DNA from: Planctomycetaceae bacterium
GTDB lineage: Bacteria; Planctomycetota; PLA2
Length of the DNA stretch: 64,000 nucleotides
NCBI GenBank assembly: GCA_052388375.1
Contig: JBQTIG010000038.1
Span: forward strand, 927 to 64,926
Reading direction: 5' to 3'
The notes below the pieces were generated by a model, which was not told the DNA's origin, did not search any database, and saw only the letters and a program-made list of their open reading frames with translations. The translations under genes and the position numbers were made by a program. Positions 4,581 to 55,017 of this stretch are shown piece by piece (the stretch's first letter is position 1; the number at the start of each line of letters is the position of its first letter).

Positions 4581-5333
4581 TCAGTCCTCTTCCATCGCGG
4601 CGAGGACTTCGAGGGGGGACTTCCCGTCGTAGTTGGAGCCGCGCAGGGCGGCGAGGCGCTCCCGCTCGTCGAGACGAAGCATGCTCTCGAAGAGCACTTC
4701 GCTCGGCTGGATCAGGAAGTGGTTGAACCAATCGGAGGGGACGCAGCCGGGCAGGAAGAAGAAGGTCCCGACGGGGAAGTGGACCAGCGAGCAGCAGATC
4801 CCCACGATCTGGACGCGCAGGGAGTCCCAGAGCTGCTCCTGGGTGATGTGGCCGGCGTCGCGCATCCGCACGCCGAACCGGCGCGGATCGTCCAAGGCCT
4901 CGACCGTCGCGATCTGTTCGCGCGTCACGAGGCCGAGGCGCAGGAGCACGTTGCCCAGCCGTTCCGAGGCGTCCGTCGTGCCGGAAAAGACGATCTGGCC
5001 GCGCTTGAAGAAGACCACCTTGGTGAGCGGCCCCGTCGTCACGCAGAGCATCCCGTTCTGGCGGTTGTTCGCGAAGTAGAGAAACAGGTTGTTGAGGATG
5101 TCGTTGTGAAACGTCCCCATCATCGAGACGGGCAGCAGGACCGGGCGGGTGACCCCTTCGCCGCGGAACACCAGCGAGTCGCCCTCGACCGCGATGCGCG
5201 AAAAGCCACCATCCGCAAGACCGAGCGTCTTGCGTGCGATCTTCGGCATCATGACCGAGATCGTGTTGGTGGTCTGGTTCACCCGTGAGTCTCCCGATGC
5301 CCAAGCCAGTATCGGCCCGGCAGCGCGGGCCAC
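4581..5333 (-). CDS. DUF4388 domain protein
   Basis: The segment KVVFFKRGQIVFSGTTDASERLGNVLLRLGLVTREQ is characteristic of DUF4388. The start is uncertain: ATG 5333, a GTG near 5280 with a GGGAGA Shine-Dalgarno, or ATG 5252. Confidence 0.55.
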   Translation of the reverse strand: MARAAGPILAWASGDSRVNQTTNTISVMMPKIARKTLGLADGGFSRIAVEGDSLVFRGEGVTRPVLLPVSMMGTFHNDILNNLFLYFANNRQNGMLCVTTGPLTKVVFFKRGQIVFSGTTDASERLGNVLLRLGLVTREQIATVEALDDPRRFGVRMRDAGHITQEQLWDSLRVQIVGICCSLVHFPVGTFFFLPGCVPSDWFNHFLIQPSEVLFESMLRLDERERLAALRGSNYDGKSPLEVLAAMEED

Positions 5334-5398: not shown

Positions 5399-7813
5399 AT
5401 GCCGCGCGCCTCCCTTCTCCTGGGCCTTTTCCTCGTGGTCTCCTGCGCCGACCTCACGCAGGTCCCCCCGCCCCCGGTCCGGCTCTCGCTCCTCGACCAC
5501 CGACTCGCCGGGGTCGACGACGACGGACTGCCGACCCTGGCGGCCGCGGACACCCTGCGCCTCCTGCGAGCGGCCCCGTCCGGGGCGCTCGTGACGTTCC
5601 ACGTGCCGGACGTCGCCTCGGCTGGGCGGCGCATCCAGAAAACCGCGCTCTACCGCATCCTGACGAGCCGCGAGATCCGGCAGCTCTTCTCCTCCCTCAC
5701 CGCGTCGCTCCCGTTGCGCTTCCCGGCCTCGGGCCCGGTGTCCGGCGCGGCGGGCGGGGACACCGAGCCGCTGGACCTCCTCTCCTCGCTCCGGGGCGAG
5801 GTGGTGGTGAGCATCGAGGATCTGCCCATCGGCGAGGCAGGCGCGCCGGGCATGCCGCGCCTGCTGTTCATGGCGAACATCCTCGGCGCGGAGCAGGCGG
5901 CGGAGTCCCTCATCGAGGGGATCGGCGTCATGGCGGCGACGGATCGGGCGGTCAAGGTGGAGCGCGGCAGCGCGGGCGGTTCGCGCTTCGTGCGGGTGGT
6001 GCTCCGAAAGCCGATGGATGCCGTCCTCGAAATGGCGGTCCATCGCGGCGCCATCCTGCTCGGGCTCGGCCGCGAGATCGTCACCGAGGCGATGGAGCGG
6101 GCGGAGCGCGACGGGTCCTCCGCCGCGATCGACGCGGGATTCCAGCGCTGCCTCGAGGTGTGCGGCGATCCCCGCGACGCCTTCCGGCTGCACCTCGACG
6201 TCACCGCCTGGCTGCGGAGGTTCGGATCGAGGATCCCGGAGGAGACCCGCCGCGTGCTCACCGAACTCGGCCTCGACCGCGTACGCGGCCTCGCCTTCTC
6301 GCTTCGGCCCGAGGGGGACAACTTCGTGGTCTCGACCTTCCTCGATTCGCCCGGGGGCGAGGACAGCCTCACGCATCTCCTCAAGCGACACGCGGTGGAC
6401 CGGCAGTTCCTCGACCTCCTGCCCAGCGACACGATCGCCTTCTCCGTGTTCGCCCTGGACGGCCGGGCGATCCTGCGCACGCTGCGCACCGCCCTGCCCG
6501 ACGCCGGAGCCGCGGGGCTGGAGGGGTGGATCGGCGAGCTGGGCCGCATGGGAATCGATCTCGAGGGCGATCTCCTCGAAGTCTTCGGGCCCCGCTGCTC
6601 GCTGGTGACGCTTCCGGTGGAGCGCTCCGGCGCCGACGGCCTCGACGCGCTCTGGAAGCGGTTCCAGGGGCTGGTCCTCGTGACGGAGGTGCAGGACGCG
6701 GCGCGCGCGCACAAGGTGTTGGGCCGCCTGCCGCAGGGCACTGGGACGGTGCGCCGCGCCACCCGCACGGTCGGCTCGCACACGGTCCACGACTACCGGT
6801 TCGTGGCCGGCCAGCTCCCTCCGGGATTCTCGCTCTCGTACGCGCTCACCGATGCGCACCTCTTCGTCGCGCTCTCGGAGGATGCGATGACCCGGATGCT
6901 CTCCGTGGAACCCGGGCGGTTCGGCACGCGCTTCCGGGAGGCGGTCAAGGCCGCCCCGGAGACCGTCGCGAGCCTCTCGTACGAGGACGTGCGTTCCGGC
7001 GTCGAGACCCTCGTCGGGCTCTGGTCCTCCCCCACCACCTCGGCACCGGCGACCCCGGAGAAGGAGACCTCGGACGCGGGTTCCCTCGCCTCGCTCCTCC
7101 GCGGGCTCGAGCCCACGGTCTCCTACACGGTGGCGGACGACTCGGGGCTGCTGAGCGTGACCCGCTCCCCCACCGCCGGCTTCGGAGGCATGAACAGCCC
7201 CCTCTCGCTGCTGGTGGTCGCCTCGATCGCGATTCCCAACATGACCCAGGCGCGCATCCAGACCAACGAGTCCACCGCCCTCGTCACCCTGCGCTCCATC
7301 GAAGCCGGGCAGTCCGCGTTTCGCGCGCGGAGGCTGCTCGACTCCGACAACGATGGGGAGGGCGAGTTCGGCACCCTCGAGGAGCTGGCTGGCGACACGC
7401 CCCTGCGTTCCGGCCGCGCCGTCCCCCGCGACCTGACCCCGCTGCCGGGGCTCGTCCGCAACGCCTCCGGGGTCTACGAACGGAACGGCTACCTCTTCCG
7501 CGTCTTCCTGCCCGCCGAGGACGGGTCGCCCGTGGGCGTCGTCGGCTCCCAGCGCCGCGCCCCGGTGGACGGGGATCTCGCCGAGGCGATCTGCATCACC
7601 GTCGCCTGGCCGGTGGAACGCGATCGCACGGGACGGAACTGCTTTCTCCTCGACGCCAGCGGCGTGATCTACGCCTGCACCGATGGGGTCTACGAGGGAG
7701 CCAACCCGCCCCCGCCGGACGTGCTCTCCAGTCAGGCCAACAACATCGCGGCGGCGCCGCTCCCGGCCGGGCAGCCCGGCCGCGACGGCTGTTCCTGGAC
7801 CCGCGTGCGCTGA
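5399..7813 (+). CDS. Large lipoprotein with C-terminal type II secretion pseudopilin / type IV pilin-like domain
   Basis: The signal peptide plus lipobox (LFLVVSC) is preceded by a GGGGAG Shine-Dalgarno 4 nt upstream. The segment PLSLLVVASIAIPNMTQARIQTNESTALVTLRSIEAGQSAF matches the pilin alpha1 helix but lies about 600 aa into the protein, without a G-F/M-x-x-x-E prepilin cleavage site. Confidence 0.7.
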   Translation: MPRASLLLGLFLVVSCADLTQVPPPPVRLSLLDHRLAGVDDDGLPTLAAADTLRLLRAAPSGALVTFHVPDVASAGRRIQKTALYRILTSREIRQLFSSLTASLPLRFPASGPVSGAAGGDTEPLDLLSSLRGEVVVSIEDLPIGEAGAPGMPRLLFMANILGAEQAAESLIEGIGVMAATDRAVKVERGSAGGSRFVRVVLRKPMDAVLEMAVHRGAILLGLGREIVTEAMERAERDGSSAAIDAGFQRCLEVCGDPRDAFRLHLDVTAWLRRFGSRIPEETRRVLTELGLDRVRGLAFSLRPEGDNFVVSTFLDSPGGEDSLTHLLKRHAVDRQFLDLLPSDTIAFSVFALDGRAILRTLRTALPDAGAAGLEGWIGELGRMGIDLEGDLLEVFGPRCSLVTLPVERSGADGLDALWKRFQGLVLVTEVQDAARAHKVLGRLPQGTGTVRRATRTVGSHTVHDYRFVAGQLPPGFSLSYALTDAHLFVALSEDAMTRMLSVEPGRFGTRFREAVKAAPETVASLSYEDVRSGVETLVGLWSSPTTSAPATPEKETSDAGSLASLLRGLEPTVSYTVADDSGLLSVTRSPTAGFGGMNSPLSLLVVASIAIPNMTQARIQTNESTALVTLRSIEAGQSAFRARRLLDSDNDGEGEFGTLEELAGDTPLRSGRAVPRDLTPLPGLVRNASGVYERNGYLFRVFLPAEDGSPVGVVGSQRRAPVDGDLAEAICITVAWPVERDRTGRNCFLLDASGVIYACTDGVYEGANPPPPDVLSSQANNIAAAPLPAGQPGRDGCSWTRVR

Positions 7814-8108: not shown

Positions 8109-8753
8109 TCAATACGAAAGCCGTGCCGAAACCGCGATCCGTTTGGGAAACGAGGGATAGAGCAGCGAGGGCAGGGCGCCCTGCCGTTCGGCGATTCCCG
8201 CCAGGATCCGCGCATAGTGCGGGACGATGCGGGCCGCGCGCCGATCCGCCTCCAGCTCGGTCGCCCTCGCGAGGGGAACGGCGAGTACCAGAATAGGACA
8301 CAAGGGGATCGCGAAGGGGGGGAGAGCACGCAGGAGCGGCATCAGGAGACGCGCCGGACCGTCGGTGAAGGGCTCCCAGAAGAGGTCCCCGGCGGCCGCG
8401 TGAGCGATCTCATGCGCAAGAATCGCACGCCGTTCGCTTTCGCCCACCGCGGCGCCGAGGAGGAGTCCATACCCGCGGCCCGCGCGCACGCTCGCCGCGG
8501 TCCATCCGGGGAGCAGACGCACGAAGCGTGGCGCCGGGGCGCCGAGGAGTTCCGCAAGGGTAACGGCCTCGGCGAGGAGCGCGTCGCCGCCCTCCAGCGC
8601 GCGGGGCGCCCGCCCGCAGCCCCACCGGGAGAGCGCGGCGCAGGCAACGATGCATGCCGCGCCGGCGGGCCAGGGGAAGCCGAGCAGCCAGGGCAGGGCT
8701 GCCGCCGCGCCCGCGTTGAGCAGGAGCGCGCCGGCGCGGAGCAGGGGGATCAT
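8109..8753 (-). CDS. Integral-membrane zinc metalloprotease (HExxH; M48/M50-like)
   Basis: It has several TM helices and an HEIAH motif (AILAHEIAHAAAGD). Its ATG 8753 overlaps the pcm stop as ATGA. Confidence 0.55.
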   Translation of the reverse strand: MIPLLRAGALLLNAGAAAALPWLLGFPWPAGAACIVACAALSRWGCGRAPRALEGGDALLAEAVTLAELLGAPAPRFVRLLPGWTAASVRAGRGYGLLLGAAVGESERRAILAHEIAHAAAGDLFWEPFTDGPARLLMPLLRALPPFAIPLCPILVLAVPLARATELEADRRAARIVPHYARILAGIAERQGALPSLLYPSFPKRIAVSARLSY

Positions 8754-9409
8754 CGCGGATCGCCGGTGAGGGGAACGAAGCGGACCGCGGCCACGTCGCG
8801 GTGTTCCACCTTGCCCGCGCGCTTCTCGTAGACCCGCAGGACCTGCTCCACCCCCCCCACCGGCGCGACGAGTCGCCCCCCTTCGCGCAGCTGCGCGAAG
8901 AGCGCCTCGGGCACCGCGCGCTCCGGCGCCGCCGTCACCACGATGGCGTCGTAGGGCGCGAGGGGCGGCCAACCTTCCCTTCCATCCGCGAACCGGCAGA
9001 TCACGTTGGCGTAACGGAGGCGGAGCAGGGTGGCGGCGGCGGTGCGGGCCAGCGGCTCCACGTTCTCCAGGGTCACGACGCGGCCCGCGATCTCGGCGAG
9101 GACCGCCGCCTGGTAGCCCGACCCCGTGCCCACCTCCAGCACCGATTCCCCCCCGCGGAGTGCGCAGAGCTCGGTCATGAGGGCCACGATGTAGGGCTGG
9201 CTGATGGTCTGGCCGAACCCTAGCGGGAGGGGCCGATCGGCGTAGGCGTCGGCGCGCTCCTCCACGGGCACGAATTCGTGCCGCGGAACCGTTCGGAGCG
9301 CGGCGAGAACGAGGCTGTCCCGGATCCCGCGACGCTCGATCTGGCGGCGCACCATCTCGAGGCGCTCCGCGCGCGGATCGGAGAGCGAAGAGCTATAAAG
9401 ACGCGCCAT
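8750..9409 (-). CDS. pcm: Protein-L-isoaspartate O-methyltransferase
   Basis: QTISQPYIVALM and LEVGTGSGYQAA are the canonical PCMT motifs. Confidence 0.85.
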   Translation of the reverse strand: MARLYSSSLSDPRAERLEMVRRQIERRGIRDSLVLAALRTVPRHEFVPVEERADAYADRPLPLGFGQTISQPYIVALMTELCALRGGESVLEVGTGSGYQAAVLAEIAGRVVTLENVEPLARTAAATLLRLRYANVICRFADGREGWPPLAPYDAIVVTAAPERAVPEALFAQLREGGRLVAPVGGVEQVLRVYEKRAGKVEHRDVAAVRFVPLTGDPR

Positions 9410-9481
9410 GGATGCCGCTTCCCTCAAGGGTAGCCTACCGAAGTCACGCGACCAAGACTCCAGAGCGCAAGGGCGCGCGCG

Positions 9482-10615
9482 ATGAGCGCCCTCGACTGGG
9501 CTGCGCTCGTCGCGGGGGGGGTCGCGCTGCTGCGGCATGCGGCGGCACTGCCGCGCCTCGTCCTCTATCTGCGGAGGGCGCGCATCCGCTCCATTCCGCG
9601 AGGGGAAACGCCGCCGCTGACGCTCCTGAAGCCGCTCTTCGGCGACGAGCCCGATCTGGCCGAGAATCTCGAGGCGACCCTGCGCCAGAACTACCCCTCG
9701 TTCGAGGTGCTCTTCCTGCACGAGCGGCCCGGCGACGCCGCCCTTCCGGCCGCGCACGCCGCCGCCGCGAAGGTGCCCGACGTCCCCGTGCGCTTCCTCG
9801 AGGGGCGGGATCCCGCCGCGACCAACCCCAAGGCGGCGGTGCTCATCCTCGGGGAACTCGCGGCGCGGCATGCCATCCTCGTCGCCTCGGATTCCGACGT
9901 GCGCCCCGACCCGCTCTATCTCCGGGACGCGGCCAACGCGCTGGCGGGCCGGGACGTCGCGGTCTTCCCGCCGGTCCTCTTCGGAATGCGGACCCTGGGA
10001 GCCCGTCTCCTGGGACTTCTGGTGAACACCGAGGGATTCCTGTCGGTCCTCCTCGCCGCGGGGCGGTTCACGCCGGGCGCGACCATCGCGGTGCGCGTAC
10101 CGGCGCTCCGCGCCGCGGGAGGCTGGCGCGCGGTGTCCGGCCACATGGCCGACGATTTGGCGCTGGGCCGGGCGCTGCGGGCGTGCGGGCATCCGGCGGC
10201 GCTCGCTCGACGTGCCGTCCGCTGCCGCGCGCCGGACGCGGCCTTCGCCGCCGCCGCTCGCCACATCACGCGCTGGATGCGCACGGTGCGCCATGCCGCA
10301 CCCCTCCTCTTCCTCTCCGCGCTGCTCCCCGTATGCGCCCCCCTCCTGCTCCTCGCCGCGGGCCTCTTCGGCGCGCATCGCGGACCCGCGCTGGCGGCGC
10401 TCGGGCTGCTCACCCTAACCCGCGTCGCGGTCGCGATCGCCGTCGAGTTCCGCTTCTGCTGGGACCGGTCCCTCCTGCGCGCCCTTCCCCTCCTGCCCCT
10501 CCTCTGGTTCGTCGAGCCGCTCGCCTGGACGGCGGGCGCGCTCCCGGGCCGCGTCGAGTGGCGGGGACGCCGGTACCGGGTCCGGGGCGGCCGTGCTACG
10601 CTTGCGGACGGATGA
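9482..10615 (+). CDS. Glycosyltransferase family 2/21 (ceramide-glucosyltransferase-like), membrane bound
   Basis: The N-terminal TM helix is followed by LTLLKPLFGDEPDLAENLEATLRQNYPSFEVLFL, a D..D region and a C-terminal TM bundle. Its stop overlaps the trpS start as ATGA. Confidence 0.7.
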   Translation: MSALDWAALVAGGVALLRHAAALPRLVLYLRRARIRSIPRGETPPLTLLKPLFGDEPDLAENLEATLRQNYPSFEVLFLHERPGDAALPAAHAAAAKVPDVPVRFLEGRDPAATNPKAAVLILGELAARHAILVASDSDVRPDPLYLRDAANALAGRDVAVFPPVLFGMRTLGARLLGLLVNTEGFLSVLLAAGRFTPGATIAVRVPALRAAGGWRAVSGHMADDLALGRALRACGHPAALARRAVRCRAPDAAFAAAARHITRWMRTVRHAAPLLFLSALLPVCAPLLLLAAGLFGAHRGPALAALGLLTLTRVAVAIAVEFRFCWDRSLLRALPLLPLLWFVEPLAWTAGALPGRVEWRGRRYRVRGGRATLADG

Positions 10616-11589
10616 GCCGGAAGACCGTTCTCTCGCTCATGCGCGCGACCGGCGTCCTGCACCTGGGCAACTACCTGGGGGCCGCCCGGGACTTCGCCGC
10701 GCTCTCCACCGATCCCGCATACGACTGCTTGTTCGGCATCGCCGACCTGCACGCGCTTACCTCCCTGGGGGATCCCGAGGCGCTCCGCGCCTCGACCCGG
10801 GCGGTCGCCCGGGACTACCTCGCCGCCGGGGTCGATCCCGCGCGCGCCCTGCTCTTCCGGCAGTCGGCCATCCCCGAGACTTCCGAGCTCTTCTGGCTCC
10901 TCTGCAACGTGACGAGCGCGGGCGAGCTGCAGCGCTCGAAGACGTTTCAGGAGATGAGCCGCAAGCAGCCCGAAAACGTGAACGCCGGCCTGCTCACCTA
11001 TCCGGTGCTGATGGCGGCCGACATCCTGGGGCCGCGCGCGGATCTGGTGCCGGTGGGAGAGGACCAGATGGCGCATCTCGAGATGGCGCGCAACATCGCC
11101 CAGCGCTTCAACCATCGGTTCGGGGAGACCTTTCCCCTTCCCGAGGCCTTCCGCAAGAGCGCGATCCGGGTGCCGGGCCTGGATGGCCTGGGCAAGATGA
11201 GCAAGAGCGACGGCAACGGCTTCGCCATCGCGGAGACTCCCGAGCGGATCTGGGAACTGCTGAGGACGGCGATGACCGATCCGGCGCGCCAGCGTCGCAC
11301 CGATCCCGGCAACCCCGAGCTCTGCCCCATCGGGCAGATCCATCGCTACGTATCCCCCGCGGAGGACGTGGCGCGCACGGAGGAGGGGTGCCGCACCGCG
11401 GGAATCGGATGCATCGATTGCAAGAAGGTGTTGCACAGGAACGTCGTGACGATGCTCGCGCCCGTTCGCGAGCGGAGCGCCAAGCTCGCGGACGCCCGGG
11501 TCGAGGAGGTGCTCGCGGCGGGCGCCGTCCGCGCGCGGGAGCGCATCGCCGACACCCTCGCCGCGGCGAAGGAGAGGATGGGGCTGTGA
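10612..11589 (+). CDS. trpS: Tryptophanyl-tRNA synthetase
   Basis: It has the HIGH-like region (GVLHLGNYLG) and KMSKS itself (GLGKMSKSDGN). The length fits class I TrpRS. Confidence 0.9.
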   Translation: MSRKTVLSLMRATGVLHLGNYLGAARDFAALSTDPAYDCLFGIADLHALTSLGDPEALRASTRAVARDYLAAGVDPARALLFRQSAIPETSELFWLLCNVTSAGELQRSKTFQEMSRKQPENVNAGLLTYPVLMAADILGPRADLVPVGEDQMAHLEMARNIAQRFNHRFGETFPLPEAFRKSAIRVPGLDGLGKMSKSDGNGFAIAETPERIWELLRTAMTDPARQRRTDPGNPELCPIGQIHRYVSPAEDVARTEEGCRTAGIGCIDCKKVLHRNVVTMLAPVRERSAKLADARVEEVLAAGAVRARERIADTLAAAKERMGL

Positions 11590-12635
11590 GCGGCGGGGCG
11601 GGCGGCAACCTCACCTACGGGCAGTACCTCAACCTCGACCGGTTGCTCGCGTTGCAGAATCCTCCGGGGCCGGACGGCGGCGCGAGGACGCACCTGCATC
11701 ACGACGAAATGCTCTTCGTCGTCATCCACCAGGTGTTCGAGCTCTGGTTCAAGCAGATCCTTCACGAGCTGGTGCTGGCCCGCGACCTGCTCGCGGCGCC
11801 CGAGGTGCCGGAGCCGGACATGCCGCGCGTCGTCGCGGCGCTGGGCCGGGTGCACGAGATCCAGACGGTGTTGCTGGCGCAGTTCGACGTACTCGAGACG
11901 ATGACGCCGCTCGACTTCCTGGCGTTCCGCGGCGGACTCGGCTCGGCGTCGGGCTTCCAGTCGGCTCAGTTCCGCGAGCTGGAGATCGTCGCGGGGCTCC
12001 CCGAGACGCTGCGCATGGAGTACGACGGCGCCTCCTACGAGCGGTTCTTCGGCGCCGAGGCGCTCCGGCGCTTCCAGGCGCGCCGGGCCGAGCCGACCCT
12101 GCGCGACGCCATGCACGGCTGGCTCGCTCGCACGCCGATCGAGAGCGCGTTCGTGCGCAACTACCTCGCCTCGCTGGAGCGCTACGTCGCGGGGCAGCTG
12201 GCGCTGCACCGCGGGAATCCGCGCCTGGCGCCGGAGGAGCGCGCCGCCATCGAGCGCCGCCTCGAGGTCTACCGCGCGGATGGGCGCGACTTCCTCGAGG
12301 GGAAGGACGCGCCGGTCCATCGCGCCTGCCTCTTCATCCTCGCGCACCGCGACCAGCCGCTGCTCCACTGGCCGAACCGCCTCCTCGACGCGATCTGCGA
12401 GTTCGAGGAGTACTTCCGGCTCTGGCGCTTCCGCCACGCACGCATGGTGGAACGCCTCATCGGGCTGCGGGTCGGGACGGGCGGGTCGAGCGGCGTGGAC
12501 TACCTCGACGCCACGGCCATGCGCTACCGGCTCTACCCCGAACTCTTCCGCGCGCGCTCCTTCCTCGTGCCGCGCGCGCTCCTGCCGGACCTGGAGAACC
12601 CGGGTCGTTACGGCTTCGCCAAGGACGCCCGGTAG
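11586..12635 (+). CDS. kynA: Tryptophan 2,3-dioxygenase
   Basis: LTYGQYLNLDRLLALQ, HHDEMLFVVIHQVFELWFKQILHE and GGSSGVDYL are TDO signatures. Its GTG start overlaps the trpS stop as GTGA. Confidence 0.85.
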   Translation: MSGGAGGNLTYGQYLNLDRLLALQNPPGPDGGARTHLHHDEMLFVVIHQVFELWFKQILHELVLARDLLAAPEVPEPDMPRVVAALGRVHEIQTVLLAQFDVLETMTPLDFLAFRGGLGSASGFQSAQFRELEIVAGLPETLRMEYDGASYERFFGAEALRRFQARRAEPTLRDAMHGWLARTPIESAFVRNYLASLERYVAGQLALHRGNPRLAPEERAAIERRLEVYRADGRDFLEGKDAPVHRACLFILAHRDQPLLHWPNRLLDAICEFEEYFRLWRFRHARMVERLIGLRVGTGGSSGVDYLDATAMRYRLYPELFRARSFLVPRALLPDLENPGRYGFAKDAR

Positions 12636-21149: not shown

Positions 21150-23363
21150 ATGCGCCTGCTGGCCGCCCTCCTCGCGTTCGCCCTCCCCGCCCTCGCGCAG
21201 GGCCTTCCCCCGGCGAGCCGTATCGACGGCTGGACTTCCCAGAAGACGCAGCAGCGTCTGCGCCTCGAATGGGACTCGGTTCCCGACGCCACGCCGATCA
21301 AGCTCCCCGACGGGACCACCGAGCCCGCGCAGTCGCCCTGGCCGTTCCTGCTCTACGTCCAGAATCTCGACACCAAGTCGAGCGAGAAGATCGACGCCAA
21401 CATCCTCTCGGACACCCGCTTCTCCCTCGCTTCGCGAGTCTGCCGGATCATCCGCATCTCCCCCACCAAGGCGATCGACTTGCCCTACCTCGCCGTGGTG
21501 GAGGGCATCAAGGACCCTTCCATCGTCGTGTTCGACCGCGACTTCACCGTGGTCGGCGTTCTCAACGAGCAAAAGGAGTTCACCGCCGACCGCTGCCTGG
21601 GGCTCATGGCGAAGGCGATCGACGCGGCCTGCACGCGGCCCCTGGGGCCGTGGCTGAAGGAGTACGTCACGCTGCTCCAGGACGCGGAGAAGCTCTGGAA
21701 GGAGGAGCGGCGCATCGAGGACCTCGCGTCGCGCTCGGGCGACAAGAGCGAGGCGGACCGCCAGAAGGGGTTCCGGGAGGTAGAGGAGCTGGAACAGGCG
21801 CTCAAGGCGGAGGAGGAGAAGCTGCTCGATCGCGAGGAGGCGCTCAAGGCTTCCATGGCGGTGAAGGCCGAGGAGGCGGCGGCGCTCCCGACGACCACCG
21901 GGAAGGGCCGGGACAAGCGCGCCTTGACGCCGCAGGAGATGGAGGCCATGGGGGCCTTCCGTCGCTTCGCCCGCGACAAGAACCCGCTCGTGCGCGCCGC
22001 CGCGGTGGAGGATCTCGGATCCGTCGATTCGGCCCCCATCGTCGACTTGATCCTCACCGCCGCCAACGACGTCGATGTGCGCGTGATCCGCGCCGCGGGG
22101 GTGGCACTCGGGAAGATGCGCGCTCCCGAATCCCTCGATGCCATGACCGCGGCCCTGGCGGCGGGCAAGTCCTCCACCCGCGAGGCTGCGCTGCTCGGCT
22201 TCGCCCACGGCGTGCCCCACGCCGCCGCGGTGGCCGGCATCGTGGCCTGCCTCGAGAGCGGGAGCGACGACCAGCGCCGCTACGCGATGGAGGCGCTCGC
22301 GCGCCAGCGCGATCCCGCCGCGGTGGAGCCCCTGATCCGCGGGGTGCAGCGCGGACTACCCGCGCTGCGGGTTCTGGCCGCCACCGCCCTGGGCGAGATC
22401 CGCGCGCCGGCGGCGGCGGCCGCTCTGCTCGCCTGCCTCGCAGAGAGCGATTGGTCGCTCAAGAAGGCGGCGGCGGAGGCCCTCGGCAAGATACGCGTGA
22501 GGGAGGCGATCGAACCCCTTCTGGCGCGGCTCGAAGCGGAAGAGGGGCTCATGCTGGAGGTGATCCAGGCGGCGCTCGTCTCCACGACCGGCCAGGACTT
22601 CGGGTACAAGATCGAGAACTGGAAGCGCTGGTGGGTCATGGCCGGTCCCACCTTTCGCGTACCCACCGACGCGGAAGTCTTGAAGGCGAGGGCGCTGGCC
22701 GAGAAGGCGCTCGAGGGCTACGCCAAGCCGGACAAGCGCAAGTACCACAAGATCGAGACCCTCTCGCGCAAGATGGTGTTCATCATCGACATCTCCTCCT
22801 CCATGGGGGACAAGATCATCATCCCGCCGGACGCGCCGGCCTCCGCGGCGGAGGAGTTCCCCGACCGCATCAAGATGGAGATCGCGAAACGGGAGCTGAT
22901 CGAGATCCTCGCGACGCTGGACGGCAACGTCTACTTCAACATCATCGTGTTCGCGGGCCGCGCGAAGCTCTGGCAGGACACTCTGGTGCCGGGCTCGATG
23001 CGCACGGCGGCGATCAAGTTCGTGGCGGACCTGAAGCCGATCGCGCAGGGCGGCCGCAAGTCGGGCGGCGACGAGCAGAAGACCAACACCTACGGCGCCC
23101 TGGCCGCCGCCTTCGAGCAGAGCGACGCCGCCATACCCAACTGGAAGTCGCGGTCGCAGGTGGACACCATCTTCCTCGTGACCGACGGGCTCCCCACGAT
23201 CGGGGACATCGTCGATGTGCCCAAGCTCATCGACGCGGTGACCGAGTGGAACCGCACCCGCGGCGTGGTCATCCACGTCATCTGCTTCAACAAGCAGGAC
23301 GGCCAGCGCCTCGCGCCCTTGGCCACGCGCAACGGCGGGAAGTACGTGCTGCGGGGGTTCTGA
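21150..23363 (+). CDS. Secreted HEAT-repeat + von Willebrand factor A domain protein (paralog 1)
   Basis: A signal peptide is followed by a coiled-coil region, PBS-lyase-type HEAT repeats (LVRAAAVEDLG, VRVIRAAGVALG), a GQDFGYKIENWKRWW motif and a VWA domain with an imperfect MIDAS (FIIDISSSMGD; the canonical DxSxS has I at the second position). Confidence 0.8.
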   Translation: MRLLAALLAFALPALAQGLPPASRIDGWTSQKTQQRLRLEWDSVPDATPIKLPDGTTEPAQSPWPFLLYVQNLDTKSSEKIDANILSDTRFSLASRVCRIIRISPTKAIDLPYLAVVEGIKDPSIVVFDRDFTVVGVLNEQKEFTADRCLGLMAKAIDAACTRPLGPWLKEYVTLLQDAEKLWKEERRIEDLASRSGDKSEADRQKGFREVEELEQALKAEEEKLLDREEALKASMAVKAEEAAALPTTTGKGRDKRALTPQEMEAMGAFRRFARDKNPLVRAAAVEDLGSVDSAPIVDLILTAANDVDVRVIRAAGVALGKMRAPESLDAMTAALAAGKSSTREAALLGFAHGVPHAAAVAGIVACLESGSDDQRRYAMEALARQRDPAAVEPLIRGVQRGLPALRVLAATALGEIRAPAAAAALLACLAESDWSLKKAAAEALGKIRVREAIEPLLARLEAEEGLMLEVIQAALVSTTGQDFGYKIENWKRWWVMAGPTFRVPTDAEVLKARALAEKALEGYAKPDKRKYHKIETLSRKMVFIIDISSSMGDKIIIPPDAPASAAEEFPDRIKMEIAKRELIEILATLDGNVYFNIIVFAGRAKLWQDTLVPGSMRTAAIKFVADLKPIAQGGRKSGGDEQKTNTYGALAAAFEQSDAAIPNWKSRSQVDTIFLVTDGLPTIGDIVDVPKLIDAVTEWNRTRGVVIHVICFNKQDGQRLAPLATRNGGKYVLRGF

Positions 23364-53421: not shown

Positions 53422-55017
53422 TCAGTCGCTGCCCAGGGGCTTGGGCTTGCGGATGTCGACGCAACTGCCGCCGTTCTGCTCGGCCAGAGCGCGCATGAAG
53501 TCGGCCATCTCGTCGGGGTCCTCGTACTTGTCCGCCTTCTCGATGGCGGGCCGCCCCATGACCAGCGCGATGCAGTGGATGATGACCCGTCGGAAACGGT
53601 TGCAAGCGCGCACCTTCGCCAGGATCTCCTCCGGCACGATGGTCCGCCCGGTGGAGGGCATCCCGTCGCTCAGGAAGTAGATCGTGTCCACCAGCGGGTT
53701 GTCTTCGAAGGCCTGCATCAAGGTGTCGTGGGTGTTGGTGCCGCCCCGCGGCAGGAGCTGCGCCTCGCTCCAGGAGAGCGCGTCCGCCACGTTCTTCGGC
53801 GAGGCGACCACCTCCCCCTTCTTCTGCCAAATGCTCGGCGCCCCGGCGAAGGTCATGACATTGAAGTAGGTCTTCTCGTCGAGGCTGCGGATCGCCTTGT
53901 AGAGCTCCTTCCGAGCCGTTTCGATGCGGTTGGGGTGGTACTCGGGCCAGGCCATCGAGCCGGAGACGTCCACGATGAAGAGCACGCGGTCGGAGAGGAT
54001 CTTGAAATCGAAGAAGCTGGCCACGCTGATGCTCTCGCCCGCGGCGAGCTTGCCCTCCTCGGTGAGGCGGCCCGTCTCCTTGTCGCGCCACCATTTCTCC
54101 CAGACCTCAGGGGCGTAGCGGAAGTCCTGCCCGCTGATTGCCTTGAGCGCGCCGTAGGCCTTCTCCTTCGCGCGCAGGTTGCCCTCCCGCAGGAGCAGCG
54201 TCAATTCGGGGAAGAGCGCCTCGGCCTTTCGTGCGCCCGCAGCGACCGCCGCCGCCTCGCGCACGATGGGCACCTCGTCCTGGAACAGGGCGCGCATCGC
54301 ATCGAGGAGATCGGGGGCGCTTCCCAGGCCGAGGAGCACGTCGGCGGCGGCGAGGCGCAGCCTCCAGTCCGCGGAACCCGCAGCGGCGCGCAGCAGCGCC
54401 TCCGCGCCCGGCCCGCCGATCCGCCCCAGGGCGACGTGGATCTCGAAGAGAAGCGCCATGTCGGGTCGCTCGCGCTTGAGCGCCCGGGCGAGCAGCGCGG
54501 TGAGCGGCTCGCTGGCCTCCTTCGTGCCGAGCACGCCGAGCGCCTGCACGCAGCCGAGCTGGATCTCGTCCACAGGGCTCGAGAGGAGCTTCTCCACGAG
54601 CCACGGGCCCACCTGCGGGTCGGAGGAGAGCGCGAGGGCGCCGCCGACGTAGGATGCGAGCACGGTCCGGGACTCCCGTTGGACGGTCGCCACCATGCGC
54701 TTGACCGCGGCCAGATCCCCGATGCCGCCGATCGAGACCATGGCGTTGATGCGCGCACGGATGTCGGCGTCCTGGTCGAGGATCGCCTGCAGGCGCTTGC
54801 AGGTCTCTTCGTGGCGCACGCCGGCCAGTTCGCGGGCGATCTCGCGGCGCCGGCGCCGTTGCCTCACGTCCTGGTTGCGGGCCAGATCCTGGTACTCCGC
54901 CCACAACTCCTCCAGGCGCTCGTTCGCCGCGCGCGGGTCGGGGGCGCCTTCCTCCTCGGCGGAGAGCAAGGCGGGCGCGAGCATCAGGAGCAGGCTGGCC
55001 GCGACGCGGGCGCGCAT
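53422..55017 (-). CDS. Secreted HEAT-repeat + VWA domain protein (paralog 2)
   Basis: It has a signal peptide, HEAT repeats, a GQDFRYAPEVWEKWW motif and a VWA domain with a DxSxS MIDAS (FIVDVSGSMAW). It shares architecture with 21150-23363. Confidence 0.8.
   Translation of the reverse strand: MRARVAASLLLMLAPALLSAEEEGAPDPRAANERLEELWAEYQDLARNQDVRQRRRRREIARELAGVRHEETCKRLQAILDQDADIRARINAMVSIGGIGDLAAVKRMVATVQRESRTVLASYVGGALALSSDPQVGPWLVEKLLSSPVDEIQLGCVQALGVLGTKEASEPLTALLARALKRERPDMALLFEIHVALGRIGGPGAEALLRAAAGSADWRLRLAAADVLLGLGSAPDLLDAMRALFQDEVPIVREAAAVAAGARKAEALFPELTLLLREGNLRAKEKAYGALKAISGQDFRYAPEVWEKWWRDKETGRLTEEGKLAAGESISVASFFDFKILSDRVLFIVDVSGSMAWPEYHPNRIETARKELYKAIRSLDEKTYFNVMTFAGAPSIWQKKGEVVASPKNVADALSWSEAQLLPRGGTNTHDTLMQAFEDNPLVDTIYFLSDGMPSTGRTIVPEEILAKVRACNRFRRVIIHCIALVMGRPAIEKADKYEDPDEMADFMRALAEQNGGSCVDIRKPKPLGSD

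Follow-up and report, generated by a model that had tools for sequence, protein, structure and literature searches.

A class III signal peptide is what defines type IV pilins (PMC8179133), and their fold is usually treated only as that of a filament subunit, in which the alpha1-N segment forms the hydrophobic core of the fibre and Glu5 forms a pair with the amine at the N-terminus of the next subunit (PMC10191384). In modular pilins such as S. sanguinis PilB and PilC, CofB, GspK and ComZ, a pilin fold and a large non-pilin module share one polypeptide; the N-terminal pilin module (IPR012902) carries the class III signal and polymerises, and the C-terminal extra module is displayed (PMC8179133). 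Here we describe a gene from a 64-kb stretch of a Planctomycetaceae contig (JBQTIG010000038.1; hereafter the window) whose 804-amino acid (aa) product also joins a pilin fold to a large non-pilin module, in reversed order: the pilin module is C-terminal, leaderless, without the N_methyl motif and predicted not to polymerise, and the other module, a lipoprotein domain, bears the membrane anchor. As the class III signal peptide and the alpha1-N segment with Glu5 are missing and no linkage to pilus machinery is seen in the window or at related loci, the protein falls outside the definition of a type IV pilin, yet its C-terminal part is a true pilin-fold domain of pilin ancestry.

The 804-aa product is identical to the NCBI entry [quoted passage not shown], where MAG denotes a metagenome-assembled genome. 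With the target included, 33 homologues were collected, every one from a MAG or metagenome of Planctomycetota; 31 have 766-811 aa and two are shorter. Those other than the target, 32 in number, are 37-83% identical to it along their whole length and have the same layout. Family counts given below refer to the 31 aligned orthologues, and those for the lipobox to the 30 members with an N-terminus in the alignment. A homologue search with the full-length protein returned only this lipoprotein family, and one orthologue (P0011) is already named “type IV pilin protein” in NCBI. The gene most likely is specific to one Planctomycetota clade and encodes an envelope lipoprotein. The first-pass annotation had described a lipoprotein with an internal pilin-like helix, an acidic loop and a pair of cysteines, and the open reading frame (ORF) and each of these features lie where it had placed them.

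Evidence for a pilin head comes from searches with residues 590-804. Apart from fragments of its own family, phmmer found seven proteins (P0044-P0050) of 218-231 aa, at E-values of 1e-19 to 1e-29 and with 68-89% of the query covered. All seven begin with a canonical prepilin leader that runs into the first helix (MxxxxGFTLIELMIVIAIIAIIAAIAIPNLLAARLSANETAAIATLR), and precomputed Pfam annotation assigns PF07963 (N_methyl) to seven of seven and PF11453 (DUF2950) to five of them. These prepilins share 33-36% identity with the lipoprotein over the whole head, in an alignment that spans the entire globular part and includes the motifs DxDxDGxGE, GYxFRxxLP, DGDLAE and AWP; unlike the lipoprotein, they are only ~220 aa long, have the leader and alpha1-N, and are encoded in type IV pilus operons. 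When one prepilin was compared with the target by composition-adjusted BLASTP, the alignment (E 1e-31, 33% identity) began at P613, past the hydrophobic stretch, and the similarity reached ~190 residues beyond the helix, which excludes a hydrophobic-helix artefact. The pilin/GspG-like resemblance proposed in the first-pass annotation is therefore real and not a product of composition.

Comparison with known structures led to the same family. A profile built from the lipoproteins only, with no prepilins in it, retrieved solely type IV pilins from the PDB down to an E-value of 0.05 (M. xanthus PilA, 8tj2; Geobacter PilA-N; Thermus PilA4), with one further match at E 1.6. Profile positions 15-65 align with mature residues 13-63 of M. 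xanthus PilA, so the invariant P613 of the lipoprotein corresponds to pilin Pro22. An AlphaFold2 model of the domain, computed from an 18-sequence alignment, has a mean predicted local distance difference test score (pLDDT) of 86.7 and a predicted template modelling score of 0.82, and consists of a 43-residue helix, a loop and an antiparallel sheet; the helix occupies residues 12-54 of the domain model and residues 601-643 (PLSLLVVASIAIPNMTQARIQTNESTALVTLRSIEAGQSAFRA) of the full-length model, in agreement with the helix seen in the first-pass annotation. The arrangement is that of the pilin fold, with alpha1-C lying on an antiparallel beta-sheet and the helix-kinking Pro22 in place.

The same region belongs to a domain family that was already named. 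DUF2950 matches 25 of the 31 orthologues at E <0.1 (best 1.4e-7), close homologues P0034, P0035, P0040 and P0041 carry a precomputed PF11453 assignment, and the NCBIfam model typeIV_PilA_Myxo matches 15/31 orthologues weakly. On this basis the C-terminal domain of the target can be treated as a putative divergent member of DUF2950. In a prepilin, Pfam DUF2950 positions ~104-250 map onto alpha1-C plus the head; DUF2950 is thus the head of a pilin, described in Pfam from members that have no leader.

Genuine pilins with this head are made by the same phylum. The P0047 locus encodes an A24 prepilin peptidase, PilT, PilB, PilC, a TPR protein and two tandem N_methyl plus DUF2950 pilins. This type IV pilus cluster, on contig CAZMXP010000014.1 (locus L004), looks complete and is followed by glycosyltransferase and polysaccharide-export genes. 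An orthologue of the lipoprotein is encoded in the same Planctomycetaceae MAG (CAZMXP01) on another contig (CAZMXP010000003.1, locus L009), and its head is 36% and 32% identical to the two pilins, so the C-terminal domain is a paralogue of the phylum's genuine pilins. Together these comparisons show that the head either derives from the true prepilins of this phylum's type IV pilus operons or has a common ancestor with them. Origin from a specific prepilin clade was considered and rejected: the closest prepilins are 35% identical to the head and the closest other leaderless forms 36-37%, and with identities this similar the direction of descent is not inferable.

The half of a pilin that assembles is missing. 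The protein begins with a lipoprotein signal, no class III leader is present, and the pilin-like region starts only at ~595, with alpha1 kept from about mature-pilin residue 13 onwards. In contrast to the type IVa major pilins (T. thermophilus PilA4, 6xxd; M. xanthus PilA, 8tj2; Geobacter PilA-N), the lipoprotein head has no class III signal, no Gly-1/Phe1 cleavage context, no Glu5 and no hydrophobic alpha1-N, sits C-terminally on a lipoprotein with predicted Sec export and has no pilus machinery genes alongside. The Pfam scan found no PF07963 match in the target, and the prepilin relatives do match. Residues 591-612, modelled with low pLDDT, are what is left of alpha1-N. Across the lipoprotein family this junction reads TRSPTGGFGSxGGLxGLxxxAAIAIPNL, uncharged and without an acidic residue, mostly over 24-29 residues; the target has only 14 uncharged residues here, with an Asn and a Pro inside the stretch, and no counterpart to the ~21 strongly hydrophobic alpha1-N residues with Glu5 of a type IV pilin. 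Its maximal mean Kyte-Doolittle hydropathy over 19 residues is 1.49, and that of the family 1.66 (1.39-1.98), against 2.94 (2.33-3.24) in 70 prepilins. With leader, Phe1, Glu5 and alpha1-N gone and 590 residues blocking the N-terminus of the helix, we infer from the sequence that prepilin peptidase does not cleave the head and that the head does not polymerise; the first-pass annotation had likewise noted that the helix is internal, behind a lipoprotein signal peptide and without a peptidase site.

A short stub was nevertheless kept. It ends in AIPN(L), corresponds to pilin residues ~13-24 (window positions 7169-7237) and is present in every DUF3352-linked head, including those of the distant proteins P0085, P0119, P0153, P0160, P0162 and P0188. 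Other leaderless heads are without it and begin at about R-x-x-A-N-E.

The gene is also not encoded with type IV filament machinery, either in the window or at related loci. With Planctomycetota queries, tblastn gave no match to PilB, PilC, PilT or the A24 peptidase in the 64-kb window, and neither Pfam scans of other window genes, those scanned being housekeeping or miscellaneous, nor the 17 related loci examined showed genes for type IV pili, type II secretion or tight adherence (Tad). Synteny with such genes, which the first-pass annotation had suggested looking for, was thus absent from all of these regions.

The N-terminal part of the protein accounts for its predicted placement in the envelope. 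The target has a positively charged n-region, a hydrophobic h-region and a lipobox, and the lipobox Cys16 is kept in 30/31 aligned members, the sole exception being N-terminally truncated, which bears out the earlier reading of a lipoprotein (30/30 members with an aligned N-terminus). Lipidation would occur at Cys16. The first 50 residues have a pLDDT <50 in the full-length model, and the PPPPV motif in the tether is conserved among homologues. The ~540 aa that follow are DUF3352-like: a Pfam scan with PF11832 (gathering threshold 26.8 bits) matched 10/31 orthologues (best E 6.2e-10), with no match in the target, and a distant relative, P0072, scores 33.2 bits. The fold is nearest to that of the T. 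pallidum lipoprotein TP0453 (PDB 3k8g) and resembles, by fold only, other Mog1/PsbP-like lipoprotein or sensor domains (the PknH sensor, LpqN, TiME and DcrB); it has no detectable sequence similarity to them and is twice as large, and no function is transferable. Cys255 and Cys400 are conserved in the family alignment, consistent with an extracytoplasmic location. The protein can be placed, as a putative divergent member, in DUF3352 and DUF2950, both of them uncharacterised in Pfam, and its architecture recurs.

The most conserved part of the head is its acidic alpha-beta loop, which is the most variable part of type IVa major pilins. In DSDNDGEGE (residues 648-656), D648, D650, D652, G655 and E656 are invariant in the 31 orthologues and are present in the prepilin relatives too. 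The motif DxDxDG..E occurs in 192/215 domain instances, and like VDGDLAE and AWP it is common to all architectures. DxDxDG loops are typical calcium-binding loops, in which the first, third and fifth positions are Asp or Asn, the sixth is Gly and a further acidic ligand follows downstream. Conservation of a loop that is variable in ordinary major pilins points to a functional site, and by its motif this loop is probably a Ca2+ site.

The cysteines are less uniform. A C-terminal D-region closed by a disulfide is typical of type IVa pilins, though not universal among them. A D-region disulfide had been proposed between the two cysteines of CFLLDASGVIYAC, residues 748 and 760; Cys760 is found in 29/31 members and Cys748 in 2/31 only, and the pair was rejected as a family feature. 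Candidate partners of Cys760 vary (C480 in 21 members, C798 in six and C748 in two), a pattern that hints at a possible interdomain disulfide through C480 in most orthologues, replaced by an intradomain one in the protein of the window. Residues 480, 760, 798 and 748 lie near window positions 6836, 7676, 7790 and 7640, respectively.

A profile search for the head among 1.84 billion cluster representatives yielded 21,725 proteins with E<=1e-3, of which 708 had E<=1e-30, and the architectures of the best 150 scoring proteins were surveyed. About half of these are ordinary prepilins of 220-250 aa. In the others, the head follows a Sec signal peptide, or a membrane anchor plus a coiled coil, or occurs as two or three tandem copies, or stands at the C-terminus of fusions to extracytoplasmic function (ECF) sigma factors, or lies behind DUF3352-like domains, the last group comprising the target family and distant P0085, P0119, P0160 and P0162. 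The first-pass annotation had called the fusion “not a standard architecture”. A head fused behind a lipoprotein domain is indeed real, and many other Pfam DUF2950 members are leaderless like this one, in many architectures, so that its rarity was overstated; what sets the target apart within the Pfam family is its fusion behind a DUF3352-like lipoprotein domain and a score below the gathering threshold.

Several of these forms deserve individual mention. Sigma70_r2/r4 domains are fused to a C-terminal leaderless DUF2950 head in P0073 and P0120 (confirmed by Pfam), and inspection of the N-termini found the same fusion in P0078, P0089, P0096, P0133 and P0187; the proteins are 494-800 aa long. 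They suggest that sigma/anti-sigma fusions can use a pilin head as their extracytoplasmic sensor. Two or three tandem heads occur in P0052, P0053, P0054, P0055, P0057 and P0058. Among these, P0055 has an ordinary Sec signal peptide followed at once by R-I-S-A-N-E, and P0053 has a prepilin-like leader. The low-GC (guanine plus cytosine) protein P0072 (1041 aa) has two DUF2950 heads, one at 260-467, upstream of its DUF3352 match (529-737), and one C-terminal. The co-occurrence of both domains there in the other order argues for their functional association.

Our favoured reading, which we hold with moderate confidence, is that the C-terminal domain is a non-polymerising, membrane-tethered and probably Ca2+-stabilised pilin head that serves the DUF3352-like lipoprotein as a static binding module, and not as a filament subunit. 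The protein would be exported by Sec and not inserted as a prepilin; its signal peptide ends in a lipobox, and the mature protein would be anchored through Cys16. From the anchor, the chain would run through the Pro-rich tether to the ~540-aa DUF3352-like domain, an uncharged Gly-rich hinge and the ~205-aa DUF2950 domain. Prepilin peptidase would not cut the head, nor could the head form the hydrophobic core of a fibre, and since it would be uncleavable and unable to supply that core it would act as a static module, presented by the DUF3352 domain in the periplasm or envelope. Leaderless heads behind Sec signals, coiled coils, ECF sigma factors or DUF3352-like domains, or in tandem, support a general role as an extracytoplasmic module.

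Several observations weigh against this reading. The stub of ~24 residues is conserved in every DUF3352-linked form, and a simple binding module leaves it unaccounted for; its retention in these forms only suggests that it has kept some role, for instance in docking to a groove, a membrane or a fibre. In some orthologues its hydropathy rises to 1.98, which reaches the classical threshold for a transmembrane segment. As a single sequence the target has no significant match in Pfam, NCBIfam or the PDB sequences, and a signal appears only through family alignments or homologue searches: its DUF2950 score is 11.8 bits (E 0.13) against a gathering threshold of 20.2, and its DUF3352 domain goes undetected. 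Foldseek, a check proposed in the first-pass annotation, returned nothing significant from the PDB, with ComP ranked first at an E-value of 0.036. A literature search found DUF2950 in a single unrelated paper, with no account of its function, and DUF3352 in none; for a pilin-like domain combined with a lipoprotein it turned up no more than the Tad proteins CpaL and CpaD, neither of them comparable. Our assignments of lipidation, Ca2+ binding and cellular location are predictions from motifs.

The alternative that survives best, although we consider it unlikely, is that the protein is an accessory of type IV pili, its head and alpha1 stub docking onto the fibre of paralogous DUF2950-type pilins or onto the assembly platform. 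It could then be a lipid-anchored basal terminator or anchor subunit, or a periplasmic receptor or chaperone for pilins, with the DUF3352 domain shielding the hydrophobic stub. The MAG CAZMXP01, which encodes an orthologue and also a type IV pilus cluster whose two pilins have heads of this family, is in keeping with such a role, as are the uncharged AIPN (Pro22) stub, present in all DUF3352-linked forms and lost from other leaderless architectures, and the recurrence of DUF3352 with DUF2950, which in P0072 extends to another domain order. The tip-capping subunit of the minor-pilin complex is likewise without Glu5 (PMC10191384). In addition, the conserved neighbouring gene encodes a PATAN/DUF4388 protein, and a preprint on Synechocystis reports that PATAN regulators bind the type IV pilus motor there (bioRxiv 10.1101/2021.06.11.447907), which provides a lead only. 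Against docking, no type IV pilus, type II secretion or Tad gene adjoins the lipoprotein gene in the window or at the 17 related loci, the N-terminus of alpha1 is blocked, Phe1 and Glu5 are missing, and the stub falls far short of alpha1-N in hydrophobicity; the DUF4388 linkage is gone in distant relatives and may be inherited gene order only.

A broader version of this idea, which we regard as speculative and hold with little confidence, is that these lipoproteins are a novel class of type IV filament accessory proteins, non-polymerising pilin paralogues that would dock to a fibre of same-family pilins, at its base or side, through the stub (mature residues ~13-22 plus alpha1-C) and the head. 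They would use the lipid anchor to tether or terminate the fibre, or would keep pilins that are not yet assembled in the periplasm. DUF2950 more broadly would then be a large family of “domesticated” leaderless heads that act as extracytoplasmic sensor or binding domains, including those in ECF sigma-factor fusions.

Very improbable is a second membrane segment at residues ~594-613, either a stop-transfer transmembrane helix, which would put the head across the membrane from the lipoprotein domain, or a monotopic anchor, which would give the protein two membrane pins. Most orthologues do have 24-29 consecutive uncharged residues with maximal hydropathies of 1.4-2.0, around the classical threshold of 1.6, and TP0453 integrates into membranes through amphipathic helices, according to the title of Luthra et al. 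2011, cited in PMC3406077. The target itself, with its Asn, its Pro, its shorter uncharged run and a hydropathy of 1.49, argues against such a segment. The stretch is Gly-rich, residues 591-600 are coil in the AlphaFold2 model, and neither flank shows a positive-inside bias. The relatives of the head are all exported pilins or Sec-signal proteins and the Ca2+-type loop is present, so that a cytoplasmic head is implausible.

That the pilin resemblance is an artefact, of a biased hydrophobic helix or of a mis-assembly or frameshift joining a lipoprotein gene and a downstream prepilin gene, has next to no probability and is already refuted: the lack of significant matches in the single-sequence and Foldseek searches would fit it, but the composition-adjusted similarity continues far past the helix, and the same uninterrupted ~800-aa layout, with the junction TRSPTGGxG kept and no prepilin leader, recurs in 31 independent assemblies.

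Table 1. Window coordinates of the features of the lipoprotein gene and of its divergent neighbour.
Feature	Residues	Position	Strand	Remarks
Whole gene		5399..7813	+	804 aa; ATG start; stop codon 7811-7813; lipoprotein with a DUF3352-like domain, then a leaderless DUF2950 pilin head
Predicted lipoprotein signal peptide, MPRASLLLGLFLVVS-C, lipobox VVSC	1-16	5399..5446	+	Matches [LVI][ASTVI][GAS]C
Pro-rich tether, DLTQVPPPPVRLS..., predicted disordered	17-50	5447..5548	+	pLDDT <50; PPPPV motif
N-terminal alpha/beta domain, divergent DUF3352, TP0453-like/Mog1-PsbP-like fold	~51-590	5549..7168	+	Cys255, Cys400 conserved
Vestigial alpha1-N, PTAGFGGMNSPLSLLVVASIAI	591-612	7169..7234	+	Aligns with prepilin GFTLIELMIV...; uncharged, Gly/Ser-rich
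Pilin alpha1 helix, AIPN (P613 = pilin Pro22), R619...N623-E624	601-643	7199..7327	+	AlphaFold2; family profile
Acidic DxDxDG loop (D648-S-D650-N-D652-G-E-G-E656 ... E662), putative Ca2+ site, alpha-beta loop	648-662	7340..7384	+	
Beta-sheet head, pilin fold; GYxFRxxLP, VDGDLAE and AWP motifs, Cys760	~690-804	7466..7810	+	
DUF4388/PatA_N (PATAN) cytoplasmic protein, divergent neighbour		4581..5333	-	Pfam PF14332 E 7e-13; context only

The gene model is supported by a Shine-Dalgarno-like motif (GGGGAG) 5 nt 5' of the ATG and by GC contents of 0.72, 0.52 and 0.93 at the three codon positions, typical for the real genes of the window. At the window's GC content of ~72%, many spurious ORFs occur in all frames, and the antisense ORFs overlapping 5399..7813 did not pass the codon-position filter. 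A scan for promoters and terminators gave nothing usable in this 72% GC sequence.

The lipoprotein gene is monocistronic. On its 3' side lie a convergent M48-like gene and PCMT, and beyond the divergent DUF4388 gene follow a methyltransferase gene, a hypothetical gene, NadE and NrtR. The DUF4388 assignment made in the first-pass annotation holds. The listed GTG start of this neighbour at 5333 is probably too far upstream; starting at Met28 (position 5252), the protein would have 223 aa, near the 225, 233 and 235 aa called for three homologues. Gene order is kept at all close-clade loci, and DUF4388 is the immediate divergent neighbour in 12/12 with the upstream flank covered, whereas the distant relatives P0085 and P0160 have a different neighbour and no DUF4388. 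A functional link to the PATAN neighbour was considered and is not evidenced, since the whole region is syntenic and the linkage is absent beside P0085 and P0160. At those of the related loci (L001-L017) where the lipoprotein is only 37-44% identical, its syntenic neighbours, the DUF4388 protein among them, are 56-70% identical, and this faster evolution is consistent with an extracytoplasmic location, as is usual for envelope proteins.

Elsewhere in the window, the ORF at 8750-10378 (-) has its PCMT domain only at residues 341-539 of 542 aa, and PCMT is 213-220 aa at the homologue loci; in the ORF at 10593-12635 (+), Trp 2,3-dioxygenase occupies residues 330-658 of 680 aa. Both ORFs greatly exceed in length the genes inside them, a typical high-GC over-extension. 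Two proteins with HEAT repeats and a vWA domain are encoded at 21150-23363 (+) and 53422-55017 (-). At the P0005 locus, HEAT-repeat genes are inserted directly 3' of the orthologue, with no tie to the lipoprotein established.

In total, this case shows a pilin head without its assembly half, used at the C-terminus of a lipoprotein with predicted Sec export in a function that can at present be proposed only by inference, and it resolves no long-standing question. Automated “type IV pilin protein” labels on these 800-aa lipoproteins call for caution. The uncharacterised DUF2950, which we take to be InterPro IPR021556, is the pilin head, and it is found in thousands of proteins, some with a prepilin leader and others lacking one. 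Raynaud and colleagues reportedly counted IPR021556 in 2021 among the extra modules of “modular pilins”. DUF2950-type modular pilins may therefore need to be re-read, as the “extra module” would be the pilin head itself and not a graft. The family assembled here provides a concrete, testable set of proteins for the role of the pilin head outside the pilus.

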